Source of the DNA: Raphidiopsis brookii D9
Lineage (GTDB): Bacteria > Cyanobacteriota > Cyanobacteriia > Cyanobacteriales > Nostocaceae
Direction of reading: 5' to 3'
Assembly (NCBI GenBank): GCA_000175855.1
Contig: ACYB01000036.1
Coordinates: 1 to 32,000, forward strand
DNA length: 32,000 nt
Part shown: piece after piece, positions 3,284 to 28,088 of the stretch
Numbering within the stretch: the first letter of the stretch is position 1
How the letters are laid out: the number at the start of each line of letters is the position of its first letter
The notes under the pieces: model-generated
What the model saw: the letters and a program-made list of their open reading frames with translations, nothing else
What the model was told of the DNA's origin: nothing
Database searches by the model: none
Position numbers and translations under genes: made by a program

Positions 3284-3324
3284 GGATTGATAGAAGTTAC
3301 CTGATTAGTTTAGTATAGGACTTA

Positions 3325-4107
3325 TCAGGTAATAATTCTCACTTCTCCCATGCCCATGGTTGTTTTGCGACCAATACCGGAAAAAAGGGCAAATTTGGCT
3401 AAAATATTAGCTATACGAGCTTGTTGCAGATCTGGAAAAAAATATTTAACCCAGCCCACACAACCTATTTCTCTACGGCTTTCTGTAGAGCTGTTAATTT
3501 TTAAAAACTGGGTTTTTAAATCAAAAGCTAAAGCTAAACTTTGCCATTGAATAGAAGAAAAATGTAGCTCTGGGGGTGCAAAATAGTTCCAACGATGTAG
3601 TAGGGTGTTAAATACCAAGTCTGGTAAAGGGAAAGGTTGAATATTACGATGATGCTGTAAACTAGTGGGAGAAATAAAATTTAGCACGATCTCAGAATTA
3701 AAATTAGCAATATTTGCCAAACTCTCATAATTAGAAATATTGACTAAATTATGAGAATTAGGTACAGTATAAATCCCACGAATGATAAAGGGGAAATTAT
3801 CCAAATAAATAGATGGAGTTTGATACATTTCTATGCCTTGTAACAAAGATTGTATTAAATTACCATTTAACAGAGAAATACGAATCAAAAATCTATCCCC
3901 TAATCTTGTACCATCCTTACGCCGATACCCAATGAGTCCAGATAAACTAAATGATGATTCTTGACTATTGGAAACTGATTCAGCTAGATAGGAATTGCCT
4001 ATACTTAACCACTCTATAAATTGAGCATAAATTGCCTGATTTAGTCTTGTAGGAATGGGTTTTTCACTTGCAGCGCCCAGTTCAATAATTAAACTTTGTA
4101 GAAGCAT
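3325..4107 (-). CDS. cas6: CRISPR-associated Cas6 family protein (type I-D context)
   Basis: 260-aa ORF, last gene of a three-gene operon. It has the C-terminal glycine-rich loop FSGIGRKTTMGMGEV (GxGxxxxxGxG) typical of Cas6, and an N-terminal SFSLSGL segment like the Cas6 pFtlS.L motif. It starts 4 nt after the cas5 stop. No profile search was possible. Confidence 0.72.
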   Translation of the reverse strand: MLLQSLIIELGAASEKPIPTRLNQAIYAQFIEWLSIGNSYLAESVSNSQESSFSLSGLIGYRRKDGTRLGDRFLIRISLLNGNLIQSLLQGIEMYQTPSIYLDNFPFIIRGIYTVPNSHNLVNISNYESLANIANFNSEIVLNFISPTSLQHHRNIQPFPLPDLVFNTLLHRWNYFAPPELHFSSIQWQSLALAFDLKTQFLKINSSTESRREIGCVGWVKYFFPDLQQARIANILAKFALFSGIGRKTTMGMGEVRIIT

Positions 4108-4111
4108 ATTC

Positions 4112-4780
4112 TTAGATCAATATCCCTGTGCTTGCACCATAACCAACTCTCCTAGGTAAGCAGGTTTGATCTGGTAATTGATAGTAATCTCCCGTTAATT
4201 GTGCTTGGCTTAACAAGCTGGAGGGTGACATAAAAATCCTATTATAAAGTAATAATTTGGTGGTTCGAGATAAATCTATGGGGTTCAAAGGATGTTTACT
4301 AACATATTCTCCGGATTTTTGTTTGAAGTCTGAGATAATGCTGGTTTCAACTTTAATTTTTGCTGACCATTTACCCAGTCTAATCCAGTGGGGAATTGTA
4401 ATTTCGTGGGGAGCAAAAACATAGGTTTTAAAGTGACTACCCACCGCTAATTCTTTAACATTGCTATACTGATGATAACAAGGAATTTGGGCAACGGTGT
4501 TAATTTGATATGACCAGGTAATTGGTAAAGCAGGAAAGACATAAATTCCAGCCTGATTTAGATGAAAAAGACTTTGCTCTTGATTGGTATCTAAATAAGT
4601 AAGTTCTGGAACTATTTTACCTGGAAGACGGTAAGAACGAGGAATATAATCTGTTTCAAAAAAGGCAAAACTCAATGCCCAATTGTGCAAATATTTCTCG
4701 GTTTCATACAGAGTACCAATTTCACGATTGGCAAGAAATACATTATCATGTAATCTTAAATCACATTGATAAATCATCAT
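4112..4780 (-). CDS. cas5: Type I-D Cas5 (Csc1-like)
   Basis: 222-aa ORF. The N-terminus MMIYQCDLRLHDNVFLANREIGTLYETEKYLHNWALSFAF matches the Csc1/Cas5d signature as I recall it. It sits between the csc2-like and cas6 genes, as in type I-D operons. Confidence 0.72.
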   Translation of the reverse strand: MMIYQCDLRLHDNVFLANREIGTLYETEKYLHNWALSFAFFETDYIPRSYRLPGKIVPELTYLDTNQEQSLFHLNQAGIYVFPALPITWSYQINTVAQIPCYHQYSNVKELAVGSHFKTYVFAPHEITIPHWIRLGKWSAKIKVETSIISDFKQKSGEYVSKHPLNPIDLSRTTKLLLYNRIFMSPSSLLSQAQLTGDYYQLPDQTCLPRRVGYGASTGILI

Positions 4781-4795
4781 AAATTTACTTGAGGT

Positions 4796-5767
4796 TTACG
4801 AGATGTTAATTAATTGATAGTTGCTACTATCTAGACTAATAAAATTTCTTTTTCTAAAAGGTAGATTGGGGATGATTTCTTTGCTTCTTGAAGACCAAGA
4901 ATCACCATAGATTTGAGCATAAATTTTGGTCTGTTGACAAAGTGTGGTCATCACAGTTTTTAATTTGGTCCTATCTTGATAAAGGATGGAAACTTCTGTT
5001 AATAGGTTTATTAATTGTGATCCTGTAATTATCCTAGTCTTGGTTACTGGTTCTTGATTTAAGAGGTTATTGCTCACTTCCGTAGCTTTGGTAATTAGGT
5101 CTGCCAAGGAAGCATTAAGGTTTGATTTCAAAACATCATATAATGCTTGAGTAAAATGAAGATTACTGAATATTTCACCATCACACAATACAATACCAAT
5201 TACATGATTAGACATTCCTATCTGAGGAGAGGTATGCAATAAATTGCCCAAAACATATAAGAAACTTTCAAAAGTAGGATCACACAAGGTTGCTACCGTA
5301 GGAAAGGTAATTTCAGCAATCACATCATTTGATTTAGCGTCACCAAGAGAAAAAGCTGAGTCTGAGTAGACTTTTGCCAGCTCTAGTCCACCTTCATTAC
5401 TAGCAAATCCGTAAATAATACAATTTGGGCATTGTTTACAACAGTTTTCACCATTGTATTCACAAAATTTATCTTTATCCTTGGGGTTATCACTAGCTAA
5501 ACCAAGGGAAAACAATAATTCCCTTCCTACTAATCTTGCTGATGTGGTTTGTTGATGCTTGGGCATTACTAGTCTATTAATCACATCACTAGTTTGTATT
5601 CCTGCTTGTGTGCGTACTGTATTTAACACTCCATCAGGTTGTAATATAGGAAAGCATTGACTATGACGCAACATTACAAAATGGACATATTTACCAGACG
5701 CTAAACGGGGTAAAGCTGTGGAAAATTCTGGTTTGATACTGTCTAAAAAACCATCTGAAAAACTCAT
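4796..5767 (-). CDS. cas7: Type I-D Cas7 (Csc2-like backbone subunit)
   Basis: 323-aa ORF. GKYVHFVMLRHSQCFPILQPDG and the Cys cluster CEYNGENCCKQCPNCIIYGFA resemble the Csc2/Cas7d family. It is the first gene of the cas7-cas5-cas6 operon, with 15-nt and 4-nt intergenic gaps. Confidence 0.72.
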   Translation of the reverse strand: MSFSDGFLDSIKPEFSTALPRLASGKYVHFVMLRHSQCFPILQPDGVLNTVRTQAGIQTSDVINRLVMPKHQQTTSARLVGRELLFSLGLASDNPKDKDKFCEYNGENCCKQCPNCIIYGFASNEGGLELAKVYSDSAFSLGDAKSNDVIAEITFPTVATLCDPTFESFLYVLGNLLHTSPQIGMSNHVIGIVLCDGEIFSNLHFTQALYDVLKSNLNASLADLITKATEVSNNLLNQEPVTKTRIITGSQLINLLTEVSILYQDRTKLKTVMTTLCQQTKIYAQIYGDSWSSRSKEIIPNLPFRKRNFISLDSSNYQLINIS

Positions 5768-6126
5768 CTTTTTGAATCCTTAGTGCTTCTTGACTTTGCA
5801 AACATGCAAATACATCGCAAACTCGTACTCTCCGTCTGGTTTTGAGTATAGGAGCAGTAAATAAATTTTCATTGTAGGGTAAGTGTTTACTCTAGGTATT
5901 TACTTGATGCAACTAATCTAATACTTCCTGATTGGGAGTTGTTATCAAAAAATGACCACATCTCAAAAATTTTTGGGTTTATGGATTAGAAAAATAATGT
6001 TAATTGACATCGTCAAATCAAAACTTTGTTTAACATACAAAAATAGTTTTTAAAAACAAGTGGTAATAAATCCTGAAATTAAGATGTATAATTAGTTCTG
6101 AATAAACATTGTCTATTCCAGTCAAG

Positions 6127-7042
6127 ATGTCATCAAAGAATGCTAGTCCATGGAATCAAATAGGATTCGCACTAGAAATATTGAGACTCCTCGCACAAAA
6201 ATACCCAAAAAAAATCAGAATTAATGCTACTGCTAGGGGAACGGGGTTTTGCAGATGGGGATCTAGGACAAAAGATCACCCGCACCATAACTAAGTTGAG
6301 GAGTTGTGGTTTTGAAATTAAATCAGCGCCAAACCAACCATATAAACTGGTGACATCAGATTTCCCCGTAATTATAACAGAAGAACAACGACAAGCTTTA
6401 GCTATGGCATGTGAATTACTAGCAAGTCTGGGGTTTTCTGCGGAGGCGGGACATATTTACAGAATTGCTAACTCGGAAAATCGCATATCCCACAAACTGA
6501 CAACGGATTTTCACCCACCCACGAATTATAGTGAAGATAAGATTCAGGAAGTAGTACAGGATCTACAAAATCGGATTGGGAAAAAGCGTCGATTTGTTGT
6601 TTGGTATAGAAGCAGAAATGGTAATGATAAACAGTGGGACTTAGACAAGTCGGAATTAAGACTACATAACGGAGTCCTTTATTTATTTAGTATAGTTCCC
6701 AGTTTTATTGGTCAACATATTCACAAGACACCTAATCCAGAGCAGAATTGCACTTTAAGGGTAGACCGTATTGCTAGGGTGGGTTCTTCTTCCCAAATAC
6801 CTTGGACTTACACTAAATTTCCCACTTTGAAAATTCAGTATCGTCTAACAGGGAATTTAGCCAGCTATAAACCGCGTCGTCCCCACGAAAAAATTATTTC
6901 TCCTCCTGATAAGACGGAGCATGTTGATATTGAAACCCAAGAAGATTGTATTTTCTGGTTTCATCAAAGAATTTTACAATATGGCGCTAATGCTAGAGTT
7001 TTACAACCAGATTGGTTAGTAAAATGGTGGTGGAAAGTTTAA
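6127..7042 (+). pseudogene. HTH-WYL-WCX domain transcriptional regulator, divergent from the cas operon. The N-terminal HTH is split from the body by a frameshift in an A8 tract.
   Basis: ORF 6109..6294 encodes MSSKNASPWNQIGFALEILRLLAQKYPKK and then goes out of frame. ORF 6224..7042 continues MLLLGERGFADGDLGQKITRTITKLRSCGFEI (rest of the HTH), then a WYL core (RFVVWYRSRNG...LRLHNGVLYLFSIVP...LRVDRIARV) and a WCX-like end (FWFHQRILQYGANARVLQPDWLV). Removing one A from A8 (6207..6214) fuses the two as ...AQKYPKKSELMLLLGERGF... Confidence 0.75.
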
Positions 7043-7076
7043 ATAAGGCACATAGTAATTATCAATATCAGGTCAC

Positions 7077-7107
7077 GGGGAATAGGTAGCCATATTTCCT
7101 ATTCCCC
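7077..7107. terminator. Perfect 10-bp stem hairpin between convergent genes (candidate bidirectional terminator)
   Basis: GGGGAATAGG (7077..7086), an 11-nt loop, then CCTATTCCCC (7098..7107). It lies between the WYL gene stop (7042) and the stop of the minus-strand HPF-CSD gene (7127). Confidence 0.4.
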
Positions 7108-7126: not shown

Positions 7127-7696
7127 TCAACGTTTATCTACTACTTGAATGGTTGTTGCTTGTGGTCCTTGCTCTCCCTCTTCTTGGGAAAAATGAACAC
7201 AAGCACCTAGTTTTAATTGATTAAAATCTTGATGTAAAACACTATTTTTATGAAAGTATATTTCCCTCCCATCTAGGGCTTGTAAAAATCCATATCCATC
7301 TTCTTTAAATAGTTTTGTGATAAAACCTGTACTCCCCCGTGTTTCTTCATCTCTATCATATTGCTCACTCGCACGTTGCATTTGGGTAAGTTTAGATAGT
7401 TGATGAACCATGGCATCAAAAGTCTGCCTAATTACTGCATCCAGTGGTTCATATCGAATACTCTCACCGGGATTTTTTTCTGCTACTAGTTCATGACCAG
7501 GAGGAACAGTTAGATCAATTCTTACCCGATAGGGAGAACCGCTCCGAGGACGATCATGGCTTTTTTCTATGGCAATATGACAGCTATTAATGTAATTACA
7601 AATATTTTCCAATTTGGCTATTTTCTCCCGAACCAATTTATCAATTATCTGGGATTTATCTAGGTTACGATAGGTGATTTCTGGTGCAATCTTCAT
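7127..7696 (-). CDS. HPF/RaiA (S30AE) family ribosome-associated domain fused to a C-terminal cold-shock domain
   Basis: 189-aa ORF. The N-terminal ~100 aa (ITYRNLDKSQIIDKLVREKIAKLE...YRVRIDLTVPPGHELVAEK...DAVIRQTFDAM) are HPF/RaiA-like. The C-terminus GFITKLFKEDGYGFLQALDGREIYFHKNSVL...GACVHFSQEEGEQGPQATTIQVV is a CspA-type OB fold. Confidence 0.7.
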   Translation of the reverse strand: MKIAPEITYRNLDKSQIIDKLVREKIAKLENICNYINSCHIAIEKSHDRPRSGSPYRVRIDLTVPPGHELVAEKNPGESIRYEPLDAVIRQTFDAMVHQLSKLTQMQRASEQYDRDEETRGSTGFITKLFKEDGYGFLQALDGREIYFHKNSVLHQDFNQLKLGACVHFSQEEGEQGPQATTIQVVDKR

Positions 7697-7990
7697 ACTT
7701 TTATCATCCTAACATGTCAAACACCCACTATAGATCTACTTAGTATGATTTCAATCATACCCAGGAAGGAATCTTTACCATTTCTTCTCTACTCAAATGG
7801 AGATCCTAATTTAAATAGGTAATTCCAAGATCCCACCTTTAAGTACCTCCCCGGGAAGAACTATATCTATCATTAGTATATTATTAGTAATGGTTAGTCT
7901 ATTATCACTCCTAAAATGCTAACATACCCTAATGTCAGTACGACTGAAATTTTTCGGTCATGATCACATCAGATCATTAGGAATAATCAA

Positions 7991-9679: not shown

Positions 9680-9824
9680 GTTAGGGTAAGTTAGTTAGGT
9701 TAAAACTGACCTTGCTGGTCTAGCAGGATTTCATCAAAAATGAGAACCAACTGCTCTGACTTGGCAGGGTCAAGCAATCGATGTTAAGATAATACTTGTA
9801 CAAATTAGATCATTAGAGACAATT

Positions 9825-11737: not shown

Positions 11738-12241
11738 GGTTTTTACCCCCCACCCCAAAACAAATCAAACAAGTTAAAGTGAACCCTAGACTCTCTGTCA
11801 GATCACCCTTAACCATTCCCTGGAAGAAATTGTTAAATTGTCAGGAAAAGACTTTTCCGATCATGTAAATGTAACTACGTAGTTTATCAACGGCAAAATC
11901 ACTGGAAATATCCTCCCGCTAAGTTAATAAAACCACTTAGCCAGATTCCCAGAACCTGCTTGCTGAAGATAACTTATCTCAAATTGCATCCCTTAAAAGC
12001 AACTAAAGTATAATTTGTTACTGTTTACCACAGTTTTGTTCAACCATAAGATTAGGAAGAGTTGAGACCTGACAGTGAGGAGTAATGATTTTGGGTAATC
12101 AAAAATTTTGGGTAGTGAAAGGGTCTTCATCTTTCTGTTTGCCATCATGGCCAATTCCCAACAGATGACTTCTGGATTAGTACAACTCATAGACCGTAAT
12201 TTTAGCTGACCCTCATTGTTACCTGGAGCAATAAAAAAGTT

Positions 12242-14131: not shown

Positions 14132-14145
14132 ACAATAATTATTGT
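14132..14145 (-). promoter_or_regulatory. Perfect 14-bp AT-rich palindrome, candidate Fur box / fur autoregulatory operator
   Basis: ACAATAATTATTGT is its own reverse complement. It lies 80 bp upstream of the fur ATG and 28 bp downstream of the stop of the upstream co-directional R-M gene. It resembles the AT-rich inverted-repeat logic of Fur boxes (GATAATGATAATCATTATC class). Confidence 0.35.
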
Positions 14146-14172
14146 TTATCAGAAAATGTAAAACATTCAAGT

Positions 14173-17034
14173 TCAATCTACCATTTTCACACAGTCATTT
14201 GTAATAAACTCACTAGCATCAGGTACACAGGGAGGTAAACCGGGAGCTATTACAGGTAGATTCTGTGCTTCTCTATCTGCAACTGTAAAATTTAACTCCA
14301 ACAAGAACTTTAATACATCTTCTGTTTTTTCCATACCATAAGTCTCACGAACTGCTTTATCAAGTTCTTCATGTGCTATGCGAAGACGATTTTTTCCTGG
14401 TATTTCTAGGGTGCGATATAGTTCGCGTAAACTCCATTTATTTTCTGTCATAATTTGTTGTCTTAACTCTCGTAATTTAACTGCTGCTGTAGCTACTTTC
14501 TTCACCTGTGATAATTTGGGATTTTGAGGAAAAGGAAAAGAATCAAAAACGGTATTAGAAGTATATCTAAAACCTCCAGCTAAAGTTGAACATCTTTCAT
14601 TAAACCATTGCCAATGAATATCAGATTGTAAAATTCCAAAAGAATAATCATCTGATAATGGAAATACTTGCAGAGCATCATTAGGATGTATAGAAGAACT
14701 AACAAACTCAAAAATTGAACGTTTAGTTACTCTTGCACAAGCAACATATCTCGGAATGAGAGAAATTTTCTCCAACATTTCCGTCCTTCCTCTCCAAAAT
14801 TTCCACCAATGACGAAAGTGTGATTGACGTGGACCATTATCTTTACCAGTTTGTTTCCTCTCGTCGTTAGCATTTTTTTCTATGGTTGGAAAAACATTTT
14901 TTTGAATATGTTCAAATGCTAGACGATGTTTCATAGCTGAAACAGAATCTTGACAATGATTCAGATCGATACAGTAGCGAGAAGTAAGACTTTTATAATT
15001 CCCCAATAGACTATTACCTATTAAGTAAGGATGAATTACAGATTCAGAAGATTCATCTTTAGCAATTATTTTTGCTTGTTGTAGAGTGAGTAGAAATCCT
15101 TCATTTCCATGAGTTTGTCCTTGATAACAAGCACCTAAGTTTATATTAACTAAAAGTTTTTTTGCTTGAGTAACATCAACTTTTGCAGATAAAGAAGAGT
15201 TGATTTGATCAAGTTCTACAACTTCCCAAGGACTATCTACATTATCTCCCATTTGAGTATATAATTTCTTTTGACCTGATTCTTCACCTTTGATCCAATT
15301 AACAATGGAAACATGAACTGCTGCACTACCTGACCAAACTTGAGTAGAAACTGCTTCAGTAATTGTTCCACCATTATTGACTATATAATCTAAACCCCCT
15401 TCACGGGAGTAGTTTTGACGGATGGTATTTGTACCAAACAGTCCAGCGCGTCCACCTTTGCTTAATTCATCATGAGTACGACGAAACCAGTAAACACAAT
15501 AATCTGCTCTTCCTGGTACTTCTTTATATCTTTCTCTTACTTGACTAACATAATCTTCTCCATATTCCTGCTGCATTTTGTTTTTTGATTGATAGGGTGG
15601 GTTGCCAATAATTGCGTCTGCTTTCACCCAGTCACAAAATAAAGCATCATCACAGCGAATATTTTGATCTAAATTATCCAAAGGAAGAGCTTGATCTAGT
15701 TCTAATGGTAAACTCATTTGTGCTACATTAATTAACTTATTTTCTTCATCTAATGCTAATTTTTTAGCAATCATTAATGTTACTTTTGCTAGTTCTACTG
15801 CAAATGGTTTAATATCTATACCATAAAATTGATTTGTTTTTACTAAAGAGAGTGTCCCAATATTAGATATAGATCGCAGACTGAAATTTTCATGAATTTT
15901 GTTTAATAAATTGGCTTCTAATCTCTTGATTTCTCTATAGGCAACATAAAGAAAATTCCCGCTTCCACAGGCTGGATCAAGAACTTTGAAATTAATTAAT
16001 TCTTGTCTGAGTGCCAGTAACTCATTCAGCTTTGTAGCTGCATCAATTCGTTGTTGCCAAGGTCTAAGAATAGTTGGTAAAACTACTTTTTGAATGTCTG
16101 CGGGATTGGTATAGTGTGCGCCTAAAGCATGACGTTCCTCTTTGCCCATGCTAGATTCAAATAATGTCCCAAAAATAGCAGGTTCTACTTTTGACCATTT
16201 TTCTGATGCTGCTGATGCTAATAAATCAAGTTCGCCTCTTGTCAGTGAAATTGGTTCAACTTTAGAGAATAAACCAGCATTAAAATAAGGTACATCTCGA
16301 TAACGACTATCTTGGGGTACTGGGCGATTACTTCCCATCTGATTAAAAAGTCCACCAATTAAATCATAAGAACTGATCTTATTAGAACGACAATCATCTA
16401 AAAATTCAGCAAATAAACCTCTAGGTAACAAATCAATATCTTCTGCAAATAAGGCAACAACACACTGAAGAATAAATTTTTGGGCAATTTCTTTTTTTTC
16501 TCTTCTTTCAACTAAGCGATTAAAAACTTGGGCAACGTTATCTGCTGCTTTGCGTGTAACATCCACTAAATTGTTATTAAATAGCGAGTTACGATTTTCA
16601 GGAAACAGGAAGTTTAAGACAGTATAGCGATTCGGTAAATCCTCCAATGTTACTTTATCTAATGGTTCTCGCAGTTGTATATCAAAGTCATAAATCCAAA
16701 ATTCATCAAAGTTACAAAGAATTACATATTTTGGACGATGGGGAACTAATTCTAGCCAATATTCAAAGGCTTGCTGGTAGTGTTTTTCTAGCTTTTCACC
16801 CCGTTTCTTCATTTCCAGCAGTAACCGAGGTCTCCATAGTAAATCAGCAAATTTTGTAGATTTTCCTTTGGCTTTTATCCTCGATTCTAGTTCTGCTCCC
16901 GTCTCTTTATAACCTTGATGGTTGAACGCTTGAAAAAGGCGATCGCAAAATACCTGTGCTTCATCTCTTTCATCACCTTTCAATTGGCGGACATATTCAA
17001 CAAAACTGATAATTTTATTGCGTGTATCTTCCAT
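14173..17034 (-). CDS. MmeI-family Type IIL (IIG) single-chain restriction endonuclease / N6-adenine DNA methyltransferase
   Basis: 953-aa ORF. It has an N-terminal PD-(D/E)xK-like motif FADLLWRPRLLLEMKKRG (D...ExK), SAM motif I VLDPACGSGNFL and catalytic motif IV IIGNPPYQ, followed by a long C-terminal region of TRD-like size. No separate M or S gene is adjacent. Confidence 0.85.
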   Translation of the reverse strand: MEDTRNKIISFVEYVRQLKGDERDEAQVFCDRLFQAFNHQGYKETGAELESRIKAKGKSTKFADLLWRPRLLLEMKKRGEKLEKHYQQAFEYWLELVPHRPKYVILCNFDEFWIYDFDIQLREPLDKVTLEDLPNRYTVLNFLFPENRNSLFNNNLVDVTRKAADNVAQVFNRLVERREKKEIAQKFILQCVVALFAEDIDLLPRGLFAEFLDDCRSNKISSYDLIGGLFNQMGSNRPVPQDSRYRDVPYFNAGLFSKVEPISLTRGELDLLASAASEKWSKVEPAIFGTLFESSMGKEERHALGAHYTNPADIQKVVLPTILRPWQQRIDAATKLNELLALRQELINFKVLDPACGSGNFLYVAYREIKRLEANLLNKIHENFSLRSISNIGTLSLVKTNQFYGIDIKPFAVELAKVTLMIAKKLALDEENKLINVAQMSLPLELDQALPLDNLDQNIRCDDALFCDWVKADAIIGNPPYQSKNKMQQEYGEDYVSQVRERYKEVPGRADYCVYWFRRTHDELSKGGRAGLFGTNTIRQNYSREGGLDYIVNNGGTITEAVSTQVWSGSAAVHVSIVNWIKGEESGQKKLYTQMGDNVDSPWEVVELDQINSSLSAKVDVTQAKKLLVNINLGACYQGQTHGNEGFLLTLQQAKIIAKDESSESVIHPYLIGNSLLGNYKSLTSRYCIDLNHCQDSVSAMKHRLAFEHIQKNVFPTIEKNANDERKQTGKDNGPRQSHFRHWWKFWRGRTEMLEKISLIPRYVACARVTKRSIFEFVSSSIHPNDALQVFPLSDDYSFGILQSDIHWQWFNERCSTLAGGFRYTSNTVFDSFPFPQNPKLSQVKKVATAAVKLRELRQQIMTENKWSLRELYRTLEIPGKNRLRIAHEELDKAVRETYGMEKTEDVLKFLLELNFTVADREAQNLPVIAPGLPPCVPDASEFITNDCVKMVD

Positions 17035-17183
17035 TGGACTGTTAAAATATTAATTAATACAAATGTACCATAACATATTATACACCCTAATTATATCCAA
17101 CTGGAGTTTAGACTAAAGAAAAGGGCGATCGCTAAATAGTTAGTAAATCGACAGACAGAAAAAATTATGTCAAGATCCCATAT

Positions 17184-20100
17184 CTATTCCACCAGAGATT
17201 CCGCTTCATGTACTAGATTTCTCAGGGTCTCCAAGGTCTCTAAACTTACATTTTCCCATAATTTTCTCTGATGTGCTTCTAATAACCTTTCAGCTATGTC
17301 ACGCAAGGCCCAAGGATTCTTTTCTCGAATGAATTCACACACTTTTGTCTCTTGTAAGTAACTAGTAAAAATCCCCTGATACATGTAATCTTCTACACAT
17401 TGAGCAGTGGCATCATAACCAAATAAAAAGTCTACTGTTGCTGCTATTTCAAAAGCACCCTTATAACCATGGCGCATCACTCCTTCAATCCATTTGGGGT
17501 TAATAACCCGGGAGCGATAAACCCTGGCAATTTCCTCTTTCAGTTTGCGGACCTTTGGTTGATTCGTATTAGCATGATCTCCAAAATAGGTTTCTGGGTT
17601 TTTACCTTGAATAGAACGAACTGCTGCGGTTAAACCTCCTTGAAATTGATAATAGTCATCGGAATCAAGTAAATCCTGTTCTCGATTATCTTGATTGTGT
17701 AAAACGATTTGCATTTGCTTTAAACGTTCTACAAAAATTTCAGTGTTAGCAACTGAAGATGGGGACTCCACAGTTCCCAAGTAGGGATGAGAACTCCAAT
17801 TAATATAGGCCTGAGCTAAATCTTGGTCACTTTGCCAATTTTGAGAGGCTATTAAACCTTGAATTCCCGTACCATAGGTTCCTGGTTGGGAACCAAAAAC
17901 ACGATAAAGGGATTTTTCTGTGGCCACTTCTAAACTTAATCCCTGGTGGGTCCAGAGGTCAATATCTTGTCGCACAGCAGTTACTAGGGGATTTTCCTCT
18001 AGTGGTTCATCTAAATTTGCCACTGCTACGACTGCTTGAGAGAATAGGTCGATTAAATTGGGGAAAGCATCCCGGAAAAAGCCAGAAATTCTCAAGGTAA
18101 CATCCACACGGGGACGACCTAAAATGGACAGGGGTAAGATTTCAAAGTCTATAACCCTTCTTGCTGCACCATCCCAGATAGGTTGCACACCCAATAGGGC
18201 CAAGGCCTGGGCAATATCATCACCTCCCGTTCTCATGGTAGAAGTTCCCCACACTGATAAACCCAGGGTTTTGGGATATTCCCCGTGCTCTTGAGTATAG
18301 GTTTCAATCAAGTTTTCCGCCGCCTTTCTACCCACATCCCAAGCTGTTTCTGTGGGAATAGCTCGAATATCCACAGCATAAAAATTCCTACCTGTAGGTA
18401 GCACTTCTGGTCTTCCTCTAGTGGGTGATCCAGATGCAGCACTGGGAACGTATTTACCATCTAATCCCCGCAGTAAATTAGTTATTTCTTCGGTGGTCTT
18501 TTCTAGAGCTGGAAGTAGTTTTGATTTTATCCAGTTCACAACTTGTTGAGTTGAGGATTGGTCTTGGCTTGTCTTAGTTTCATATAACTGATTTTCTATA
18601 ATTTGAGTCACTAGAACAGCAGCTTGTTCTTCCAGAAGTTCTACCACATCCCCCTGGGTGCGACAGGACTTTATTTCCATCTCCCTGGAAACCCAGTTGG
18701 GTAATGGACTTGATGGTGGATGAAATAGGTCACCATATTCTGCTGTTAATGGGTCAATATTTAATCCCCAGTCTTGAGCTATAGCACGGGTGATCCCCGG
18801 AGAGTGACGGTTGGGAATCCGGGCGATCGCCACTATTAAGTCTCTTAATTGTCTCCCCTGGGGAACTTGTCCAAAAACGTGTAAACCATCACGGATTTGT
18901 GCTTCTTTAAGTTCACACAGATAACCATCCAAAGAGTTTAAAATGGCAGATTCAAAGTTGAGGATATGTTTTTCATCTTTGATACCTAAATCTTGGTAAA
19001 GATGTTCTTGGATCACTAGTTCTTGAATACGCTGTTTTAATGTGGGTAGTCGGGAAGGATCTAAGGTTTGGGCTTCATAATACTCATCTATTAAATTTTC
19101 TACCTGTTGTAGGGAACCGTATAATTCCGCACGGGTCATAGGTGGGGTTAAATGGTCAATAATCACTGCTTGAGAACGACGTTTAGCCTGGGAACCCTCT
19201 CCGGGATCGTTAACAATAAAAGGGTAAAAGTGGGGTGTTGGTCCAAAAGCTACTTCAGGATAACAGCTATTTGATAGGGCCACACTTTTACCGGGTAACC
19301 ATTCTAAATTACCGTGTTTTCCTAGGTGAATAATGGCATCACACTTAAACACTTCCCTGACCCAATAATAAAACGCTAAATAATTATGGGTAGGTTCTAA
19401 ATCTGGCGCATGATAATTTAAACTAGGTTCTTGTTCATAACCTCGTGCAGGTTGAATCCCCACAAATATATTGCCAAAACTCACTCCACAAACTGATATT
19501 CCCCTTGATTCCCCCGAATTCATCCCCTCCCAATTCCCCCAACGGTTGAGAACTTCTTCCTGAACAGATTTAGGTAGGGTATTAAAATATCTTGTGTATT
19601 CTTCAAAGGAAACAGATTGATTTACGGGCTTCCAATCCCGACTTTCCGGATCATTGGTCACCCCAGCGGTAAGAACTTTGATTAGTTCATCACTGTTGCT
19701 GGGTATGGCACCCACATTATAACCCGCACCCTCTAAAGCTAGGAGAATTTCTATACAACTAGCAGGACTATCTAAACCTACCCCATTAGCCAATCTGCCA
19801 TTGGTGTTAGGGTAATTTGCCAAAATTATAGCTACACGCCTTTCTGAGGTCATTTTACGCCGTAATCTCAGCCAATTTGCCGCCAAATCCACCACAAAAT
19901 TAATGCGATCGCCTACAGGTTCATAAACCACCACATCAGATTCTAAGCTGGAATTGCGAGTTTGTAAAGTTTTGAAAGATACAGCTCTAGTAATAATTCT
20001 ACCATCTACCTCTGGTAAGGCCACATTCATAGCCATGTCCCGGGGGGTCAAACCTTGCAGTTGGGATGTCCATTGTTCTAGGGGACCACCAGAGAGGATG

Positions 20101-24106: not shown

Positions 24107-24714
24107 ATGGGATTAGTTCTCAAGGAAGACCTGAAAGTCTTTATGATGGATCCAAATACTGAAATTCGTCGTCTGTTGGATATAGTACCAGCTTCCGGAC
24201 GCATGACAATTAAAATTATCAGCAAACCGGAACAGAATCAAGTGATTAGTGCAGAGTTTCCCCTACCTTGGATTCAGAGTAAACCAGTATATATCAATTT
24301 TGAATTATGGAGACAGTTAAAAAAGCCACAAAGAGACTTGCTAATATTGTATCACACCAGTTGGTTAATAGGAATCAAATGGATACAACCGGATATTTAT
24401 CAGGGAGTAGTCCTAGTTGGACTATTAGGGGGGTAATAGAAACTCTTCAAGGTGATATAGTTGGTTTAGTCATAGCTGGTGGCTTAACCGTCATAAGTGG
24501 TGTAAAACTGTGGCAAAACAATAAGTCTCAGGAACTACAACTGAGAGCTGATAAAACAGCGATCGCTATTGCTCAAAAACGAGGCTACTCCGAATCAGAA
24601 GCAGCTGGACATTTGTTAACTGCTATTGAGACAGTTGCTAAACTTGAGGGAAGATTAGGTCTCAATTTTAATGAATTAATTCGTTGTCAAAATTTGCGAG
24701 CGATCGCCAGTTAG
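24107..24714 (+). pseudogene. Conserved cyanobacterial membrane protein (DUF3318-like), split by a frameshift at a G6 run
   Basis: ORF 24107..24436 (…MMDPNTEIRRLLDIVPASGRMTIKIISKPEQ…VVLVGLLGG-stop) and ORF 24307..24714 (…VIETLQGDIVGLVIAGGLTVISG…AAGHLLTAIETVAKLEG…) join seamlessly if G6 (24428..24433) becomes G7. The likely true start is at ATG 24143. Confidence 0.6.
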
Positions 24715-25946: not shown

Positions 25947-28088
25947 ATGGCTGAAGAATTGAACTTTCAAGGCAATAGTAGTGATCAGCTTCCTCCCCAA
26001 AACATCGAAGCGGAAGAGGCTATTTTGGGCGGTATTCTTTTGGATCCAGAAGCTATGGGTAGAATCAGGGATCGTCTTCTTCCCCAAGCGTTTTATGTTA
26101 ATTCCCATAGAGAAATTTATCAAGCAGCAATAATTCTTAATAACCAAAATAAACCAACCGACTTACTTTCCCTAACAGAGTGGTTAACTGGCAATGACAA
26201 ATTAAATCGTATTGGAGGTAGAAATAAACTAGCTACCTTGATAGACCGCACCGTATCATCAGTAAATATTGATATGTTAGCGGATTTAGTCATGGATAAG
26301 TATCTGCGCAGACAATTAATTAAAGCAGGTAATGAAATTGTCAAATTAGGATTTGAGACCCAGACAGAATTACCAATAGTTTTAGATCAAGCAGAGCAGA
26401 AGGTTTTTGGAATTACCCAAGAAAAACCCCAGGAGGGACTAGTTCACATTTCGGATACCCTAGTGCATACCTTTCAGGAAATTGAAACCCGTCATGAAGG
26501 AGTTGCTTTACCGGGTATTCCTAGTGGTTTTTATGATTTGGACGCTATGACCAGTGGTTTTCAGCGTTCTGATTTAATTATCGTCGCGGGTAGACCTTCT
26601 ATGGGGAAGTGTGTAAGTTATGACTCAGAAATAGTCTTAGCAGATGGAGAAATTGTCACCATTGAGGAGCTATACTACCGAAAGGAAGGTATGGTATTAA
26701 CTTTAAACCGAAATTGGAAATTTAGTTTTACTCAACCCTGTGGATTTGTCAACGATGGCATAAAACCAGTTTTTCGGGTGACAACTGCATTAGGTCGTTC
26801 TATTGAGACCACTATTACTCATCCTTACTTGACCCCAACCGGGTGGCAAAAGTTAGCAGATCTCCAACCAGGTGCTAAAATAGCAGTTCCCGCTCAAATA
26901 AATGTCTTTGGTAAGGAAAAAATTGAGGATGATCAACTTAAGCTCATGGCCCATTGTTTGGGAAATGGCAATATGGAGAAAACCATACCTCCCATAGTTT
27001 TTAAATTAGGGCGATCGCAAATAGCCTTATTTTTAAATCAGTTATTAAAATTACAGACAACCTATAAAACAAACCAAGAGAAACTAGCAAGACAGATTCA
27101 ACATTTATTATTAAGATTTGGCATAATTGCCAGATTAAAAAAAGGCTATAACAAAGAGCAAACTAACCAAACCACTTGGCAATTAGAAATTATAGAACCC
27201 CTGAGCATCCAGAGATTAGAGATTGGTGTGATAGCACAAACATTAGAGCCATTAGAGCTAATAGAAACCCAGACAGACTGTGACATTTACTGGGATGAAA
27301 TCATAGCCATTGAGAACTTAGGGGAAAAACAGGTCTATGACCTAACCATACCACATACTCATAACTTTATAGCCAATGATATTTGTGTGCATAACACTGC
27401 ATTTTGTTTAAATCTAGCCCACAACATTGCCATAGGTTATAAATTACCGGTAGCAGTGTTCAGTTTAGAAATGTCCAAAGAGCAGCTAGTACAAAGATTA
27501 TTAGCTAGCGAGGCCCAAATTGAAACCGGTTATTTAAGAAGTGGGAGGATTAGTCAAACCCAATGGGAACCTCTAAGTCGTGCTATCAGTTTGCTATCAG
27601 AAATGCCCGTTTTTATTGATGACACCCCCAATATTACCATCACCCAAATGCGGAGTCAAGCTAGAAAACTACAAGCACAACAGAATTCAAAACTAGGTCT
27701 AATCGTTATAGACTACCTGCAACTAATGGAAGGTGCAGGAGACAATCGTGTACAGGAATTATCCAAAATTACCCGTTCTCTCAAGGGTTTAGCCAGGGAA
27801 TTATCAGTTCCCATAATTGCCCTATCTCAGTTGAGTAGAAGTGTGGAAGCTAGAACTAATAAACGTCCCATGTTGTCAGACCTGCGAGAATCTGGTTCCA
27901 TTGAACAAGATGCGGATTTAGTTATTATGCTTTACCGTGAAGAATATTATGCACCCGATACCCCCGATCGCGGTATAGCAGAAGTTATTATTGCCAAACA
28001 TCGCAATGGTCCCACAGGAACAGTCAAACTTCTATTTGACCCCCAATTTACAAAATTTAAAAATCTAGCCAAACCTAAGACTTATTAA
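25947..28088 (+). CDS. dnaB: Replicative DNA helicase DnaB, interrupted in-frame by an intein in the Walker A loop
   Basis: It has the N-terminal domain PPQNIEAEEAILGGILLDPE, Walker A GRPSMGK|...|TAF split by the insert, Walker B IVIDYLQLM, and SQLSRSVE, RESGSIEQDADL, IAKHRNGPTG. The extein total is 451 aa. Confidence 0.95.
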   Translation: MAEELNFQGNSSDQLPPQNIEAEEAILGGILLDPEAMGRIRDRLLPQAFYVNSHREIYQAAIILNNQNKPTDLLSLTEWLTGNDKLNRIGGRNKLATLIDRTVSSVNIDMLADLVMDKYLRRQLIKAGNEIVKLGFETQTELPIVLDQAEQKVFGITQEKPQEGLVHISDTLVHTFQEIETRHEGVALPGIPSGFYDLDAMTSGFQRSDLIIVAGRPSMGKCVSYDSEIVLADGEIVTIEELYYRKEGMVLTLNRNWKFSFTQPCGFVNDGIKPVFRVTTALGRSIETTITHPYLTPTGWQKLADLQPGAKIAVPAQINVFGKEKIEDDQLKLMAHCLGNGNMEKTIPPIVFKLGRSQIALFLNQLLKLQTTYKTNQEKLARQIQHLLLRFGIIARLKKGYNKEQTNQTTWQLEIIEPLSIQRLEIGVIAQTLEPLELIETQTDCDIYWDEIIAIENLGEKQVYDLTIPHTHNFIANDICVHNTAFCLNLAHNIAIGYKLPVAVFSLEMSKEQLVQRLLASEAQIETGYLRSGRISQTQWEPLSRAISLLSEMPVFIDDTPNITITQMRSQARKLQAQQNSKLGLIVIDYLQLMEGAGDNRVQELSKITRSLKGLARELSVPIIALSQLSRSVEARTNKRPMLSDLRESGSIEQDADLVIMLYREEYYAPDTPDRGIAEVIIAKHRNGPTGTVKLLFDPQFTKFKNLAKPKTY
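26610..27395 (+). mobile_element. DnaB intein (262 aa) with intact splicing blocks and a degenerate LAGLIDADG-like remnant
   Basis: It begins with Cys (CVSYDSEIVLADG, block A). Block B is GRSIETTITHPYLT, block F is VYDLTIPHTHNFIAND, and it ends ICVHN followed by Thr(+1). It is inserted exactly between GRPSMGK and TAF. Confidence 0.9.

Follow-up and report, generated by a model that had tools for sequence, protein, structure and literature searches.

We analysed 32,000 nucleotides of DNA from Raphidiopsis brookii D9 (contig ACYB01000036.1, positions 1 to 32,000; hereafter, the window). This DNA contains three cas genes of the kind that make up the backbone of CRISPR-Cas systems of type I-D and, divergent from them, a gene for a WYL-domain regulator. 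We refer to the four genes as the cassette. The cas genes all lie on the minus strand: cas7d (csc2-like; 4796..5767, 323 amino acids), cas5d (csc1-like; 4112..4780, 222 amino acids), and cas6d (3325..4107, 260 amino acids and nearly canonical). Calling open reading frames (ORFs) gave exactly the coordinates that a first-pass annotation had proposed from the sequence alone, with gaps of 15 nt between cas7d and cas5d and of 4 nt between cas5d and cas6d. The locus is chromosomal, and contigs as long as 3.76 Mb carry it too.

Profile searches placed each of the three proteins in the family that it had been assigned to. The putative Cas7d matches Csc2 from Pfam (1.9e-74), TIGR03157 (7.8e-35), and Cas7d from PADLOC (2e-82); the putative Cas5d matches Csc1 (TIGR03159, 3.7e-47) and Cas5d from PADLOC (7.5e-89); and the putative Cas6d matches CRISPR_Cas6 from Pfam (1.4e-20) and Cas6d from PADLOC (1.8e-105). 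The Pfam, NCBIfam, and PADLOC scores are well over the cut-offs, and the gene order cas7d-cas5d-cas6d is that of type I-D. The top relatives among solved structures are subunits of the Synechocystis I-D Cascade (7SBA; 5e-89 for Cas7d and 4e-74 for Cas5d), and there were no other strong ones. The three proteins are 49-57% identical to their Synechocystis counterparts, and the Cas7d of the window is identical to proteins that are annotated in Cylindrospermopsis raciborskii.

The regulator gene (6127..7089) is on the plus strand. The first-pass annotation was right that a divergent WYL gene lies here, and the gene is orthologous to the regulator of canonical I-D loci, but the span that was given for it (6224-7042) is only a fragment. 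In the D9 assembly, the gene is broken by two 1-nt indels (one A too many at 6203 and one too few at ~7024). The ORF is intact, at 320 amino acids, in at least 10 other assemblies or contigs (L001, L002, L004-L010, and L014; L numbers identify the loci that we compared). Because the window carries about 10 single-base indels in ~14 kb, and because the indels in this gene are different ones in a second error-prone assembly, we treat the two indels as most likely being sequencing or assembly errors. The fragment, whose N-terminal 26 amino acids are missing through the frameshift, matches WCX from Pfam (24.4 bits, 3.8e-5, versus a cut-off of 23.9 bits) and the WYL profiles of PADLOC (8e-14 and 3e-11), and it scores 13.9 bits against WYL from Pfam (cut-off 21.8). 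The regulator is 60% identical, with 99% coverage, to the WYL protein of a canonical I-D locus from Nostoc sp. CENA543 (L015), so it appears to be the type of regulator that cyanobacterial I-D loci have, as had been supposed. A WYL gene (for an Sll7009-like regulator) adjoins most canonical I-D loci, and pSYSA of Synechocystis is arranged alike.

The rest of a type I-D system is missing. In about 75 of 80 related cyanobacterial loci, the layout is a divergent WYL gene followed by cas3'-cas10d-cas7d-cas5d-cas6d-cas4-cas1-cas2 and an array. The first-pass annotation had given the same canonical order of the cas genes and the array. We found no match by tblastn to cas3', cas10d, cas4, cas1, or cas2 in the window locus or in the orthologous loci (L001-L014). 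There is no CRISPR array, whether as tandem or as direct repeats, in the 32 kb window or within 10 kb on either side of the orthologous loci. Nothing in the window matches known I-D repeats even at 3 mismatches, and we did not find degenerate repeats or matches to Rfam families there either. All of the canonical relatives carry cas4-cas1-cas2, and next to these genes lies an array whose 37-nt repeats end in ...GGGGACTGAAAC. The window has no Tn7 genes (tnsA/B, tnsC, or tniQ); the neighbouring genes are all housekeeping genes whose synteny is conserved, and neither a nuclease gene nor any conserved partner gene adjoins the cassette. The searches by tblastn, the repeat scans, and the annotation of the neighbours thus agree that the large subunit, the nuclease/helicase, the adaptation genes, the array, and transposon genes are absent, as first proposed.

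Deletion scars, conservation and selection

The 359-bp gap between cas7d and the WYL gene (5768-6126) was described as AT-rich DNA with stops in every frame. It does have stops in all six frames, but it is not featureless. Towards cas7d, it contains in turn a pseudo-remnant of the 5' end of a WYL gene, a promoter block, the start of cas3', a junction, the end of cas10d, and the ribosome-binding region of cas7d. We mapped the junction by aligning the DNA to canonical loci from Aphanizomenonaceae (L021, L026, L032, L072, L017, and L024). Only the DNA alignment revealed the remnants of cas3' and cas10d, as tblastn gave no significant protein-level match in the gap. An ORF of 30 codons on the minus strand (5780..5872; MKIYLLLLYSKPDGEYEFAMYLHVCKVKKH and then a stop) consists of the first 11 codons of cas3' (MKIYLLLLYSK...) joined to ~45 nt of the 3' end of cas10d, and its stop lies 12 nt ahead of the ATG of cas7d. 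Since these codons of cas3' run into the end of cas10d, a single clean deletion of ~5 kb took out cas3' and cas10d, from around codon 12 of cas3' to ~45 nt ahead of the stop of cas10d, and left cas7d under the old operon promoter. With the stop of this ORF so close to cas7d, the translation of cas7d may be coupled to it or controlled by a leader peptide.

A second deletion removed everything past cas6d, which in canonical loci would be cas4-cas1-cas2 and the array. Its site is marked by a spacer of 41 bp (3284..3324) between the stop of cas6d and the stop of a convergent amidase gene; both the spacer and the gene (Amidase_3/PG_binding) are as first annotated. In the spacer lies a likely bidirectional terminator, an inverted repeat (ACCTGAT...ATCAGGT) that L007 and L011 have retained.

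The promoter region of the gap is 68-73% identical to the divergent WYL/cas3' promoter of canonical loci from Sphaerospermopsis, Dolichospermum, and Cuspidothrix (L021, L026, L032, and L072). Within the gap, a non-coding block of 103 nt (5880..5982) is 100% identical across four lineages, namely the Cylindrospermopsis lineages and Sphaerospermopsis. The p-distance is 0.075 for the intergenic region, versus 0.16-0.32 for synonymous sites. We found no significant RNA fold in the conserved block (z-scores of -0.95 and -0.78), and the block has no variation from which covariation could be read. The simplest explanation is therefore that the block is the promoter/operator of the cas7-5-6 operon, and we presume that it is. 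The block exceeds the usual size of an operator. Its complete conservation would fit repression of the cas promoter by the WYL protein. It overlaps the WYL pseudo-remnant (5939-5989). Similar pseudo-remnants lie directly upstream of cas3' in canonical loci of the Dolichospermum and Cuspidothrix type (L026:1266-1389, L032:4773-4896, and L072:4728-4851), and L032 and L072 have an intact WYL gene 0.8-1.1 kb beyond it. It follows that the WYL 5' end and promoter region were duplicated before the cassette arose.

The cassette is conserved at a single chromosomal position. The arrangement ilvD, HPF-CSD (a ribosome hibernation factor with a cold-shock domain), WYL, cas7-5-6, amidase, and chlH is the same in lineages whose Cas7d is 99%, 94%, 86%, or 77% identical, and the four cassette genes have the same lengths throughout. 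(The 77% lineage is a metagenome-assembled genome, or MAG, of Sphaerospermopsis.) Exact or near-exact copies are present in C. raciborskii CS-505, a D9-type strain, Cr2010, CENA302/303, S07, LB2897, and CHAB3438. The cassette is also present in R. curvata NIES-932, C. curvispora GIHE-G1, and Raphidiopsis BLCC-F218, and the isolates come from several continents. All of the Cylindrospermopsis/Raphidiopsis strains that were sampled have the four-gene cassette in this slot.

To quantify selection, we computed pairwise ratios of non-synonymous to synonymous divergence (dN/dS) by the NG86 method and used a binomial test on the synonymous and non-synonymous differences. dN/dS was 0.08-0.14 for cas6d, 0.11-0.20 for cas5d, 0.09-0.21 for the WYL gene, and 0.24-0.39 for cas7d, while ten flanking housekeeping genes gave 0.04-0.16. 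Neutrality was rejected for every gene and every pair (P = 2e-5 to 5e-14). At the DNA level, there are no stops or frameshifts in cas7d or cas5d in five divergent lineages (the window, L001, L014, L007, and L011), and synonymous divergence among the compared cassettes reaches 0.46. These comparisons show that the cassette was fixed before Cylindrospermopsis/Raphidiopsis split from a Sphaerospermopsis lineage and that it has been under purifying selection since then. The cassette is what is left of a canonical type I-D locus after reduction, and it has been inherited vertically.

We consider it very improbable that the cassette is a non-functional remnant of a I-D locus that has not yet decayed. 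Such a remnant would account for the two clear flanking deletions, for the conserved elements of structure and the putative catalytic residues that have been lost (described below), and for the frameshifts in the WYL gene of the D9 assembly, and other I-D loci without cas3' or cas10d do exist (L058 and L094). However, intact ORFs occupy one and the same position in separate genera and in isolates from around the world, and neutrality is rejected, with dN/dS values of 0.08-0.39. The promoter block is 100% conserved where synonymous sites differ by 16-32%, and the WYL indels are specific to one assembly. The first-pass annotation had offered a recently stranded remnant of a deleted I-D locus as the alternative to its main proposal, and this does not fit a cassette that has been kept across genera under purifying selection. 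The shared slot and the dN/dS values mark the four genes as a conserved and selected unit. The first-pass annotation had also argued against decay from the intact cas ORFs in an assembly with frameshifts, but this argument is weak: only ~1.7 indels would be expected in the 2.4 kb, and 0 were seen. This is why we rely on the comparative evidence instead.

Remodelling of the Cascade subunits

We compared the three proteins to 82 Cas7d, 80 Cas5d, and 78 Cas6d sequences from canonical loci. In Cas7d, a segment of 29 amino acids (Y138-I166 in Synechocystis) is deleted in all members of the cassette clade, and it is present in 82 of 82 canonical proteins. This segment includes E152, which was assigned to the thumb domain of Cas7d by Schwartz et al. 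(PMC9123187), so we call it the thumb. Cas7d is also missing 7 amino acids of the Arg-rich RRYGAQESRTGT loop, six of its conserved Arg/Lys residues are replaced (and the replacements are fixed in the clade), and it has gained a C-terminal tail of ~30 amino acids that is predicted to be disordered. The core fold is predicted to be kept: the AlphaFold 2 model has a pTM of 0.73, and its top match by Foldseek is Cas7d from the Synechocystis Cascade (7sba_A, TM 0.74).

Cas5d has lost a loop of 14-16 amino acids, GKSxQFGGxGAxxNYPxN (~F111-R126 in Synechocystis, which includes K114). The loop is absent from all cassette members and present in 80 of 80 canonical proteins, and the position of Q110 is substituted as well. 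In the structure of the complex, Q110 and K114 are at the point where the double-stranded DNA (dsDNA) is split and in the major groove on the side where the protospacer-adjacent motif (PAM) lies; the K114A mutation alone had little effect on binding (PMC9123187).

Cas6d has changed the least. It retains the G-rich loop GIGRKTTMGMG. The columns that correspond to H32 and H51 of Synechocystis Cas6-1 are histidine in 76/78 and 73/78 of the canonical proteins. In the raciborskii lineage, H32 is replaced by a tyrosine (Tyr27) and H51 by a serine (Ser46), while the Cas6d of the Sphaerospermopsis cassette has histidine in the first column and tyrosine in the second. H32 and H51 are reportedly the residues that Jesser et al. 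probed in 2019. Considering the columns that are nearly invariant in canonical proteins, Cas6d keeps 60 of 69 (87%), Cas5d keeps 76 of 106 (72%), and Cas7d keeps 91 of 165 (55%).

The cassette lacks every element that the I-D Cascade uses to engage and cut DNA: Cas10d/Cas11d, Cas3', the thumb of Cas7d, and the fork loop of Cas5d. We infer that it has lost the ability to target DNA as a Cascade.

Two other, independent I-D loci in our comparison, from Limnoraphis robusta BA-68 (L094:9992-14593) and from a Stigonema MAG (L058:4182-8788), have cas7d-cas5d-cas6d-cas4-cas1-cas2 with no cas3' or cas10d upstream. The upstream genes are RTX/cadherin and TPS genes in L094, where a repeat array is shown, and a type III polyketide synthase and an ABC transporter in L058. 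In both loci, the thumb of Cas7d and the loop of Cas5d are normal and the adaptation genes and arrays are kept. They illustrate recent or rearranged loss of cas3' and cas10d, and the remodelling in Cylindrospermopsis stands out beside them.

Possible roles of the cassette

The first-pass annotation proposed that the cassette encodes an RNA-guided binding complex without a nuclease, which would borrow CRISPR RNAs (crRNAs) from arrays elsewhere in the genome and silence or mark DNA for a partner, much as type IV complexes or the Cascades of CRISPR-associated transposons (CASTs) do. In its favour, the genes of the Cascade backbone are intact and under selection, there are arrays elsewhere in the genome, and derived Cascades without nucleases have precedent (PMC9881144, PMC12669027). 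Also, the I-D Cascade can bind single-stranded RNA without engaging its PAM-recognition domain (PMC9123187). Nevertheless, we think that this proposal is quite unlikely. Every known derived type I, type IV, or CAST complex keeps a large or small subunit, and the cassette has neither; in the I-D Cascade, mutating K326 or the Gly-loop of Cas10d abolishes binding of dsDNA (PMC9123187). The thumb that Cas7d has lost organises the duplex of crRNA and target every 6 nt, the fork loop of Cas5d (with Q110/K114) is deleted, and basic residues (the six Arg/Lys) are gone. No partner gene is conserved alongside the cassette, whose neighbours are housekeeping genes. The absence of Cas10d/Cas11d, together with the losses of the thumb, the Cas5d loop, and the Arg/Lys residues, points away from R-loop formation and towards a role that is either at the level of RNA or independent of crRNAs.

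The cassette shares with canonical type I-D the orthologous Cas7d, Cas5d, and Cas6d, their gene order, the divergent WYL gene, and a homologous promoter region. Canonical systems differ in having cas3', cas10d (with Cas11d), cas4/1/2, an array, the thumb of Cas7d, the Q110/K114 loop of Cas5d, and a Cas6d with H32 and H51, both of which are substituted in the raciborskii lineage. The signature gene of type I-D is cas10d (csc3), which encodes the large subunit with its HD domain and, internally, Cas11d; as this gene is absent, the cassette is by definition not a member of type I-D. The only derived I-D variant that is listed in the 2025 classification is the CAST (PMC12669027). Like the cassette, the I-D CAST (McCAST; Hsieh & Peters 2023, PMC9881144) derives from I-D, has lost cas3' and cas1/2/4, and does not degrade its target. 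Unlike the cassette, it keeps Cas10d (with an inactivated HD domain), a short array, and tnsAB-tnsC-tniQ, and it lies in a Tn7-like element rather than being fixed among chromosomal housekeeping genes. Without Tn7 genes, Cas10d, or an array, the cassette is not a I-D CAST.

Type IV systems are also class 1 systems that lack nucleases, often lack adaptation genes, and borrow from other systems. They differ from the cassette in having Csf1 or another Cas8-like large subunit, Csf2/Csf3, usually an array, DinG or CysH, and a location on plasmids. Membership in type IV was considered and rejected: the best PADLOC matches are all to I-D families, and the sole match to type IV was a Cas6 at 5.7e-13, versus 1.8e-105 for Cas6d.

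The gradient of conservation suggests another explanation, which is that only Cas6d and the WYL-controlled promoter are functional (for instance, with Cas6d cleaving or binding the repeat RNA of type III-B arrays) and that cas7d and cas5d are slowly decaying passengers, which would be retained for their position upstream in the operon. Cas6d retains 87% of the near-invariant positions and has a dN/dS of about 0.1, Cas5d is at 72%, and Cas7d is at 55%, with a dN/dS of about 0.3 and with structural elements gone. It is common for type III systems to rely on a Cas6 that is encoded at another locus. In Anabaena 7120, processing in trans has been reported (bioRxiv 2020.04.14.041012). Still, this explanation seems somewhat unlikely to us. 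The dN/dS of cas5d (0.11-0.20) equals that of the housekeeping neighbours, and cas7d, too, has a value significantly less than 1 (P as low as 1e-11). Neither gene has a stop or a frameshift in five lineages, with synonymous divergence of up to 0.46, and what Cas7d and Cas5d have lost was lost through deletions that are in-frame, clade-wide, and stable. Mere passengers could have disappeared in the way that cas3' and cas10d did, yet cas7d and cas5d have been kept.

The proteins might instead have been exapted for a function that does not involve crRNAs. Cas5d and Cas7d, perhaps with Cas6d, might act on some other RNA of the cell or of phages, or they might be a sensor or a decoy under WYL control, similar to HRAMP and ARAMP. 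The locus has no array, Cas7d is heavily remodelled and has a new C-terminal tail, both histidines of Cas6d are replaced in one lineage, and the regulatory block is extremely conserved; array-less RAMP systems provide a precedent (PMC12669027). On the other hand, Cas6d has kept 87% of the invariant positions and the G-rich RNA-binding loop, which suggests that it still has a repeat hairpin of the CRISPR type as its substrate. There is also no effector (nuclease) gene conserved nearby, as there is for HRAMP and ARAMP, so we view this function as unlikely. HRAMP and ARAMP resemble the cassette in being array-less, in having diverged Cas5 and Cas7 proteins, and in being presumed exaptations of class 1 effectors, but they derive from type III rather than from I-D and are usually accompanied by an HNH or PD-(D/E)xK nuclease (Makarova et al. 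2025, PMC12669027). The cassette has no nuclease; its Cas6 has stayed near-canonical, and it retains a WYL regulator. Of the defining features that we checked for I-D CASTs, type IV, and HRAMP/ARAMP, the cassette has only the lack of an array at the locus, and it does not match any of these classified derived systems.

Genomes of Raphidiopsis/Cylindrospermopsis have 4-11 arrays each (PMC7679094, PMC7005129, PMC6186047), so the arrays that the first-pass annotation supposed to lie elsewhere do exist. There are also sets of cas1/cas2 elsewhere in these genomes (PMC7679094, PMC7005129, PMC6186047, PMC3922686). In multicellular cyanobacteria, remote orphan arrays that are processed in trans by Cas6 are typical, for example in Anabaena 7120 (bioRxiv 2020.04.14.041012). 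In a 2025 survey, the complete genome of Cr2010 was typed as having three III-B systems and no I-D systems (PMC11903412, Table S1), even though it carries the cassette. As to a second, complete I-D locus in these genomes, tblastn against plasmids found no Cas10d of this genus, and among the best 120 of 293 homologues of a canonical Cas10d from Sphaerospermopsis, none were from Cylindrospermopsis/Raphidiopsis. A scan of genome contigs by alignment to Cas7d yielded 80 canonical loci. It returned no locus from Cylindrospermopsis/Raphidiopsis, despite the search peptides GEIFSNLH and LPRLASGKY occurring in the query Cas7d, so this genus was apparently masked or missing from the collection.

We propose that the genes of the cassette probably now serve a different job, at the level of RNA. 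We favour this type of role because the best-preserved protein is Cas6d, which binds repeat hairpins, and because the only effectors typed in a complete genome of the species are III-B systems, which use crRNAs of the Cas6 type. More specifically, the cassette may encode an exapted complex, controlled by the WYL protein, that binds repeat transcripts made elsewhere and that may process, load, protect, or sequester them, although we hold this view tentatively. In this mechanism, the native WYL-controlled promoter would drive cas7d-cas5d-cas6d, and Cas6d, together with Cas5d and the remodelled Cas7d, would bind repeat transcripts from arrays elsewhere in the genome. In Cr2010, those arrays would accompany only type III-B effector loci. 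The complex might cleave the transcripts, or it might equally well just bind them. The crRNAs would be matured, loaded, protected, or sequestered, and the complex would thereby serve or modulate the type III-B systems under control of the WYL protein.

There is precedent for Cas6 proteins that act beyond their own locus. In Anabaena 7120, Alr1482 and Alr1566 act on orphan arrays that are not adjacent to them (bioRxiv 2020.04.14.041012). In T. thermophilus, a Cas6 that is associated with type III is a negative regulator of a I-B system, so binding without a productive hand-off can modulate another system (PMC12102369). Both of those cases involve genes within complete cas cassettes, whereas here, Cas6d is conserved together with a Cas7d that lacks the thumb and a Cas5d that is trimmed, and it is without an effector of its own type.

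Several points weigh against a complex that binds repeat transcripts. We did not recover a cognate repeat or array of this genus, either from the repeat searches in the window or from a scan of metagenomes. In that scan, none of the contigs listed as matching the I-D repeat core CCCCGCAAGGGGACTGAAAC were from the two Joint Genome Institute samples that hold L007 and L009, and it carries no information about arrays in Cylindrospermopsis. Both histidines of Cas6d are replaced in the raciborskii lineage, which argues against simple cleavage of crRNAs there. With its thumb and basic loop gone, Cas7 may be wholly unable to coat RNA, and if Cas6d alone is needed, then nothing accounts for cas5d and cas7d being under selection. 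Finally, C. curvispora GIHE-G1 is listed as having one I-D system (PMC11903412), which may be the cassette itself or may be a full locus. Of a second, complete I-D locus, which the first-pass annotation had left to be checked, the typing of Cr2010 and the best 120 of 293 Cas10d homologues thus give no sign, with GIHE-G1 as the doubtful case.

The genes of the cassette are routinely annotated in public records as I-D Cas7, Cas5, and Cas6. What is new is the recognition that they form a conserved, remodelled, orphan module, and we did not find a description of it in the literature. It is possible, with less confidence than we have in the binding of repeat transcripts, that the thumbless Cas7d, the trimmed Cas5d, and the histidine-less Cas6d form a WYL-regulated ribonucleoprotein in a new role and that they represent a new functional class of CRISPR exaptation. 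With the same reservation, this might be the first type I-derived effector module to be described that has neither an array nor a large subunit. It would be fixed across a genus of major bloom formers, and its role could be to gate or feed crRNAs to the co-resident III-B systems or to bind RNA that is not from CRISPR arrays.

A class 1 backbone that has long survived without a large or small subunit, a thumb, an array, or a nuclease falls outside of the current classification (PMC12669027). Alongside the repurposed CASTs, type IV, and HRAMP, the cassette would show which parts of a Cascade can live independently. Cylindrospermopsis/Raphidiopsis are globally invasive, toxic bloom formers, and as their only typed effectors are III-B, the cassette may bear on cross-talk between I-D and type III and on the dynamics of phages and hosts in blooms. 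A natural thumbless Cas7 and a minimal set of Cas5, Cas7, and Cas6 would also be simple test objects for the rules of Cascade assembly. Even if Cas6d alone is functional, the cassette would still be a clean natural case of the stepwise reduction of a CRISPR-Cas system, with mapped junctions.

Other features of the window

Besides the two indels in the WYL gene (6203 and 7024), the window differs from other assemblies by single-base indels at 1670, 7968, 10807, 11810-11821, and 13589, and seven more are clustered in 1-60. Indels split chlH (with a fragment at 1595-2203), the WYL gene, and a DUF3318 gene (24107-24436 / 24307-24714). The scattered indels look like unpolished long-read error rather than pseudogenisation. 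Two larger indels, which are tandem duplications of 11 bp (7879-7889) and 10 bp (9685-9694), are intergenic and distinguish the window from L001 and L003; these are strain polymorphisms.

Adjoining the WYL gene, on the minus strand (7127-7696), is a gene for a fusion protein of 189 amino acids, with a ribosome hibernation factor domain (Ribosomal_S30AE) and a C-terminal cold-shock domain. At this position in the 86% lineage (L007), the only ORF that was called encodes a cold-shock domain of 94 amino acids.

Relative to L001, the window has an insertion of 3.05 kb between fur and cobN (14143-17190), with a low GC content of 0.33-0.34. It contains a gene (14173-17034) for an MmeI-like type IIL restriction-modification protein of 953 amino acids, with MmeI_N, hel, Mtase, TRD, and C domains, and is a strain-specific acquisition of a defence gene. 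Further along (25947-28088), the replicative helicase DnaB contains an intein with a LAGLIDADG homing endonuclease (Intein_splicing, 6.6e-23; LAGLIDADG_3, 5.7e-08).

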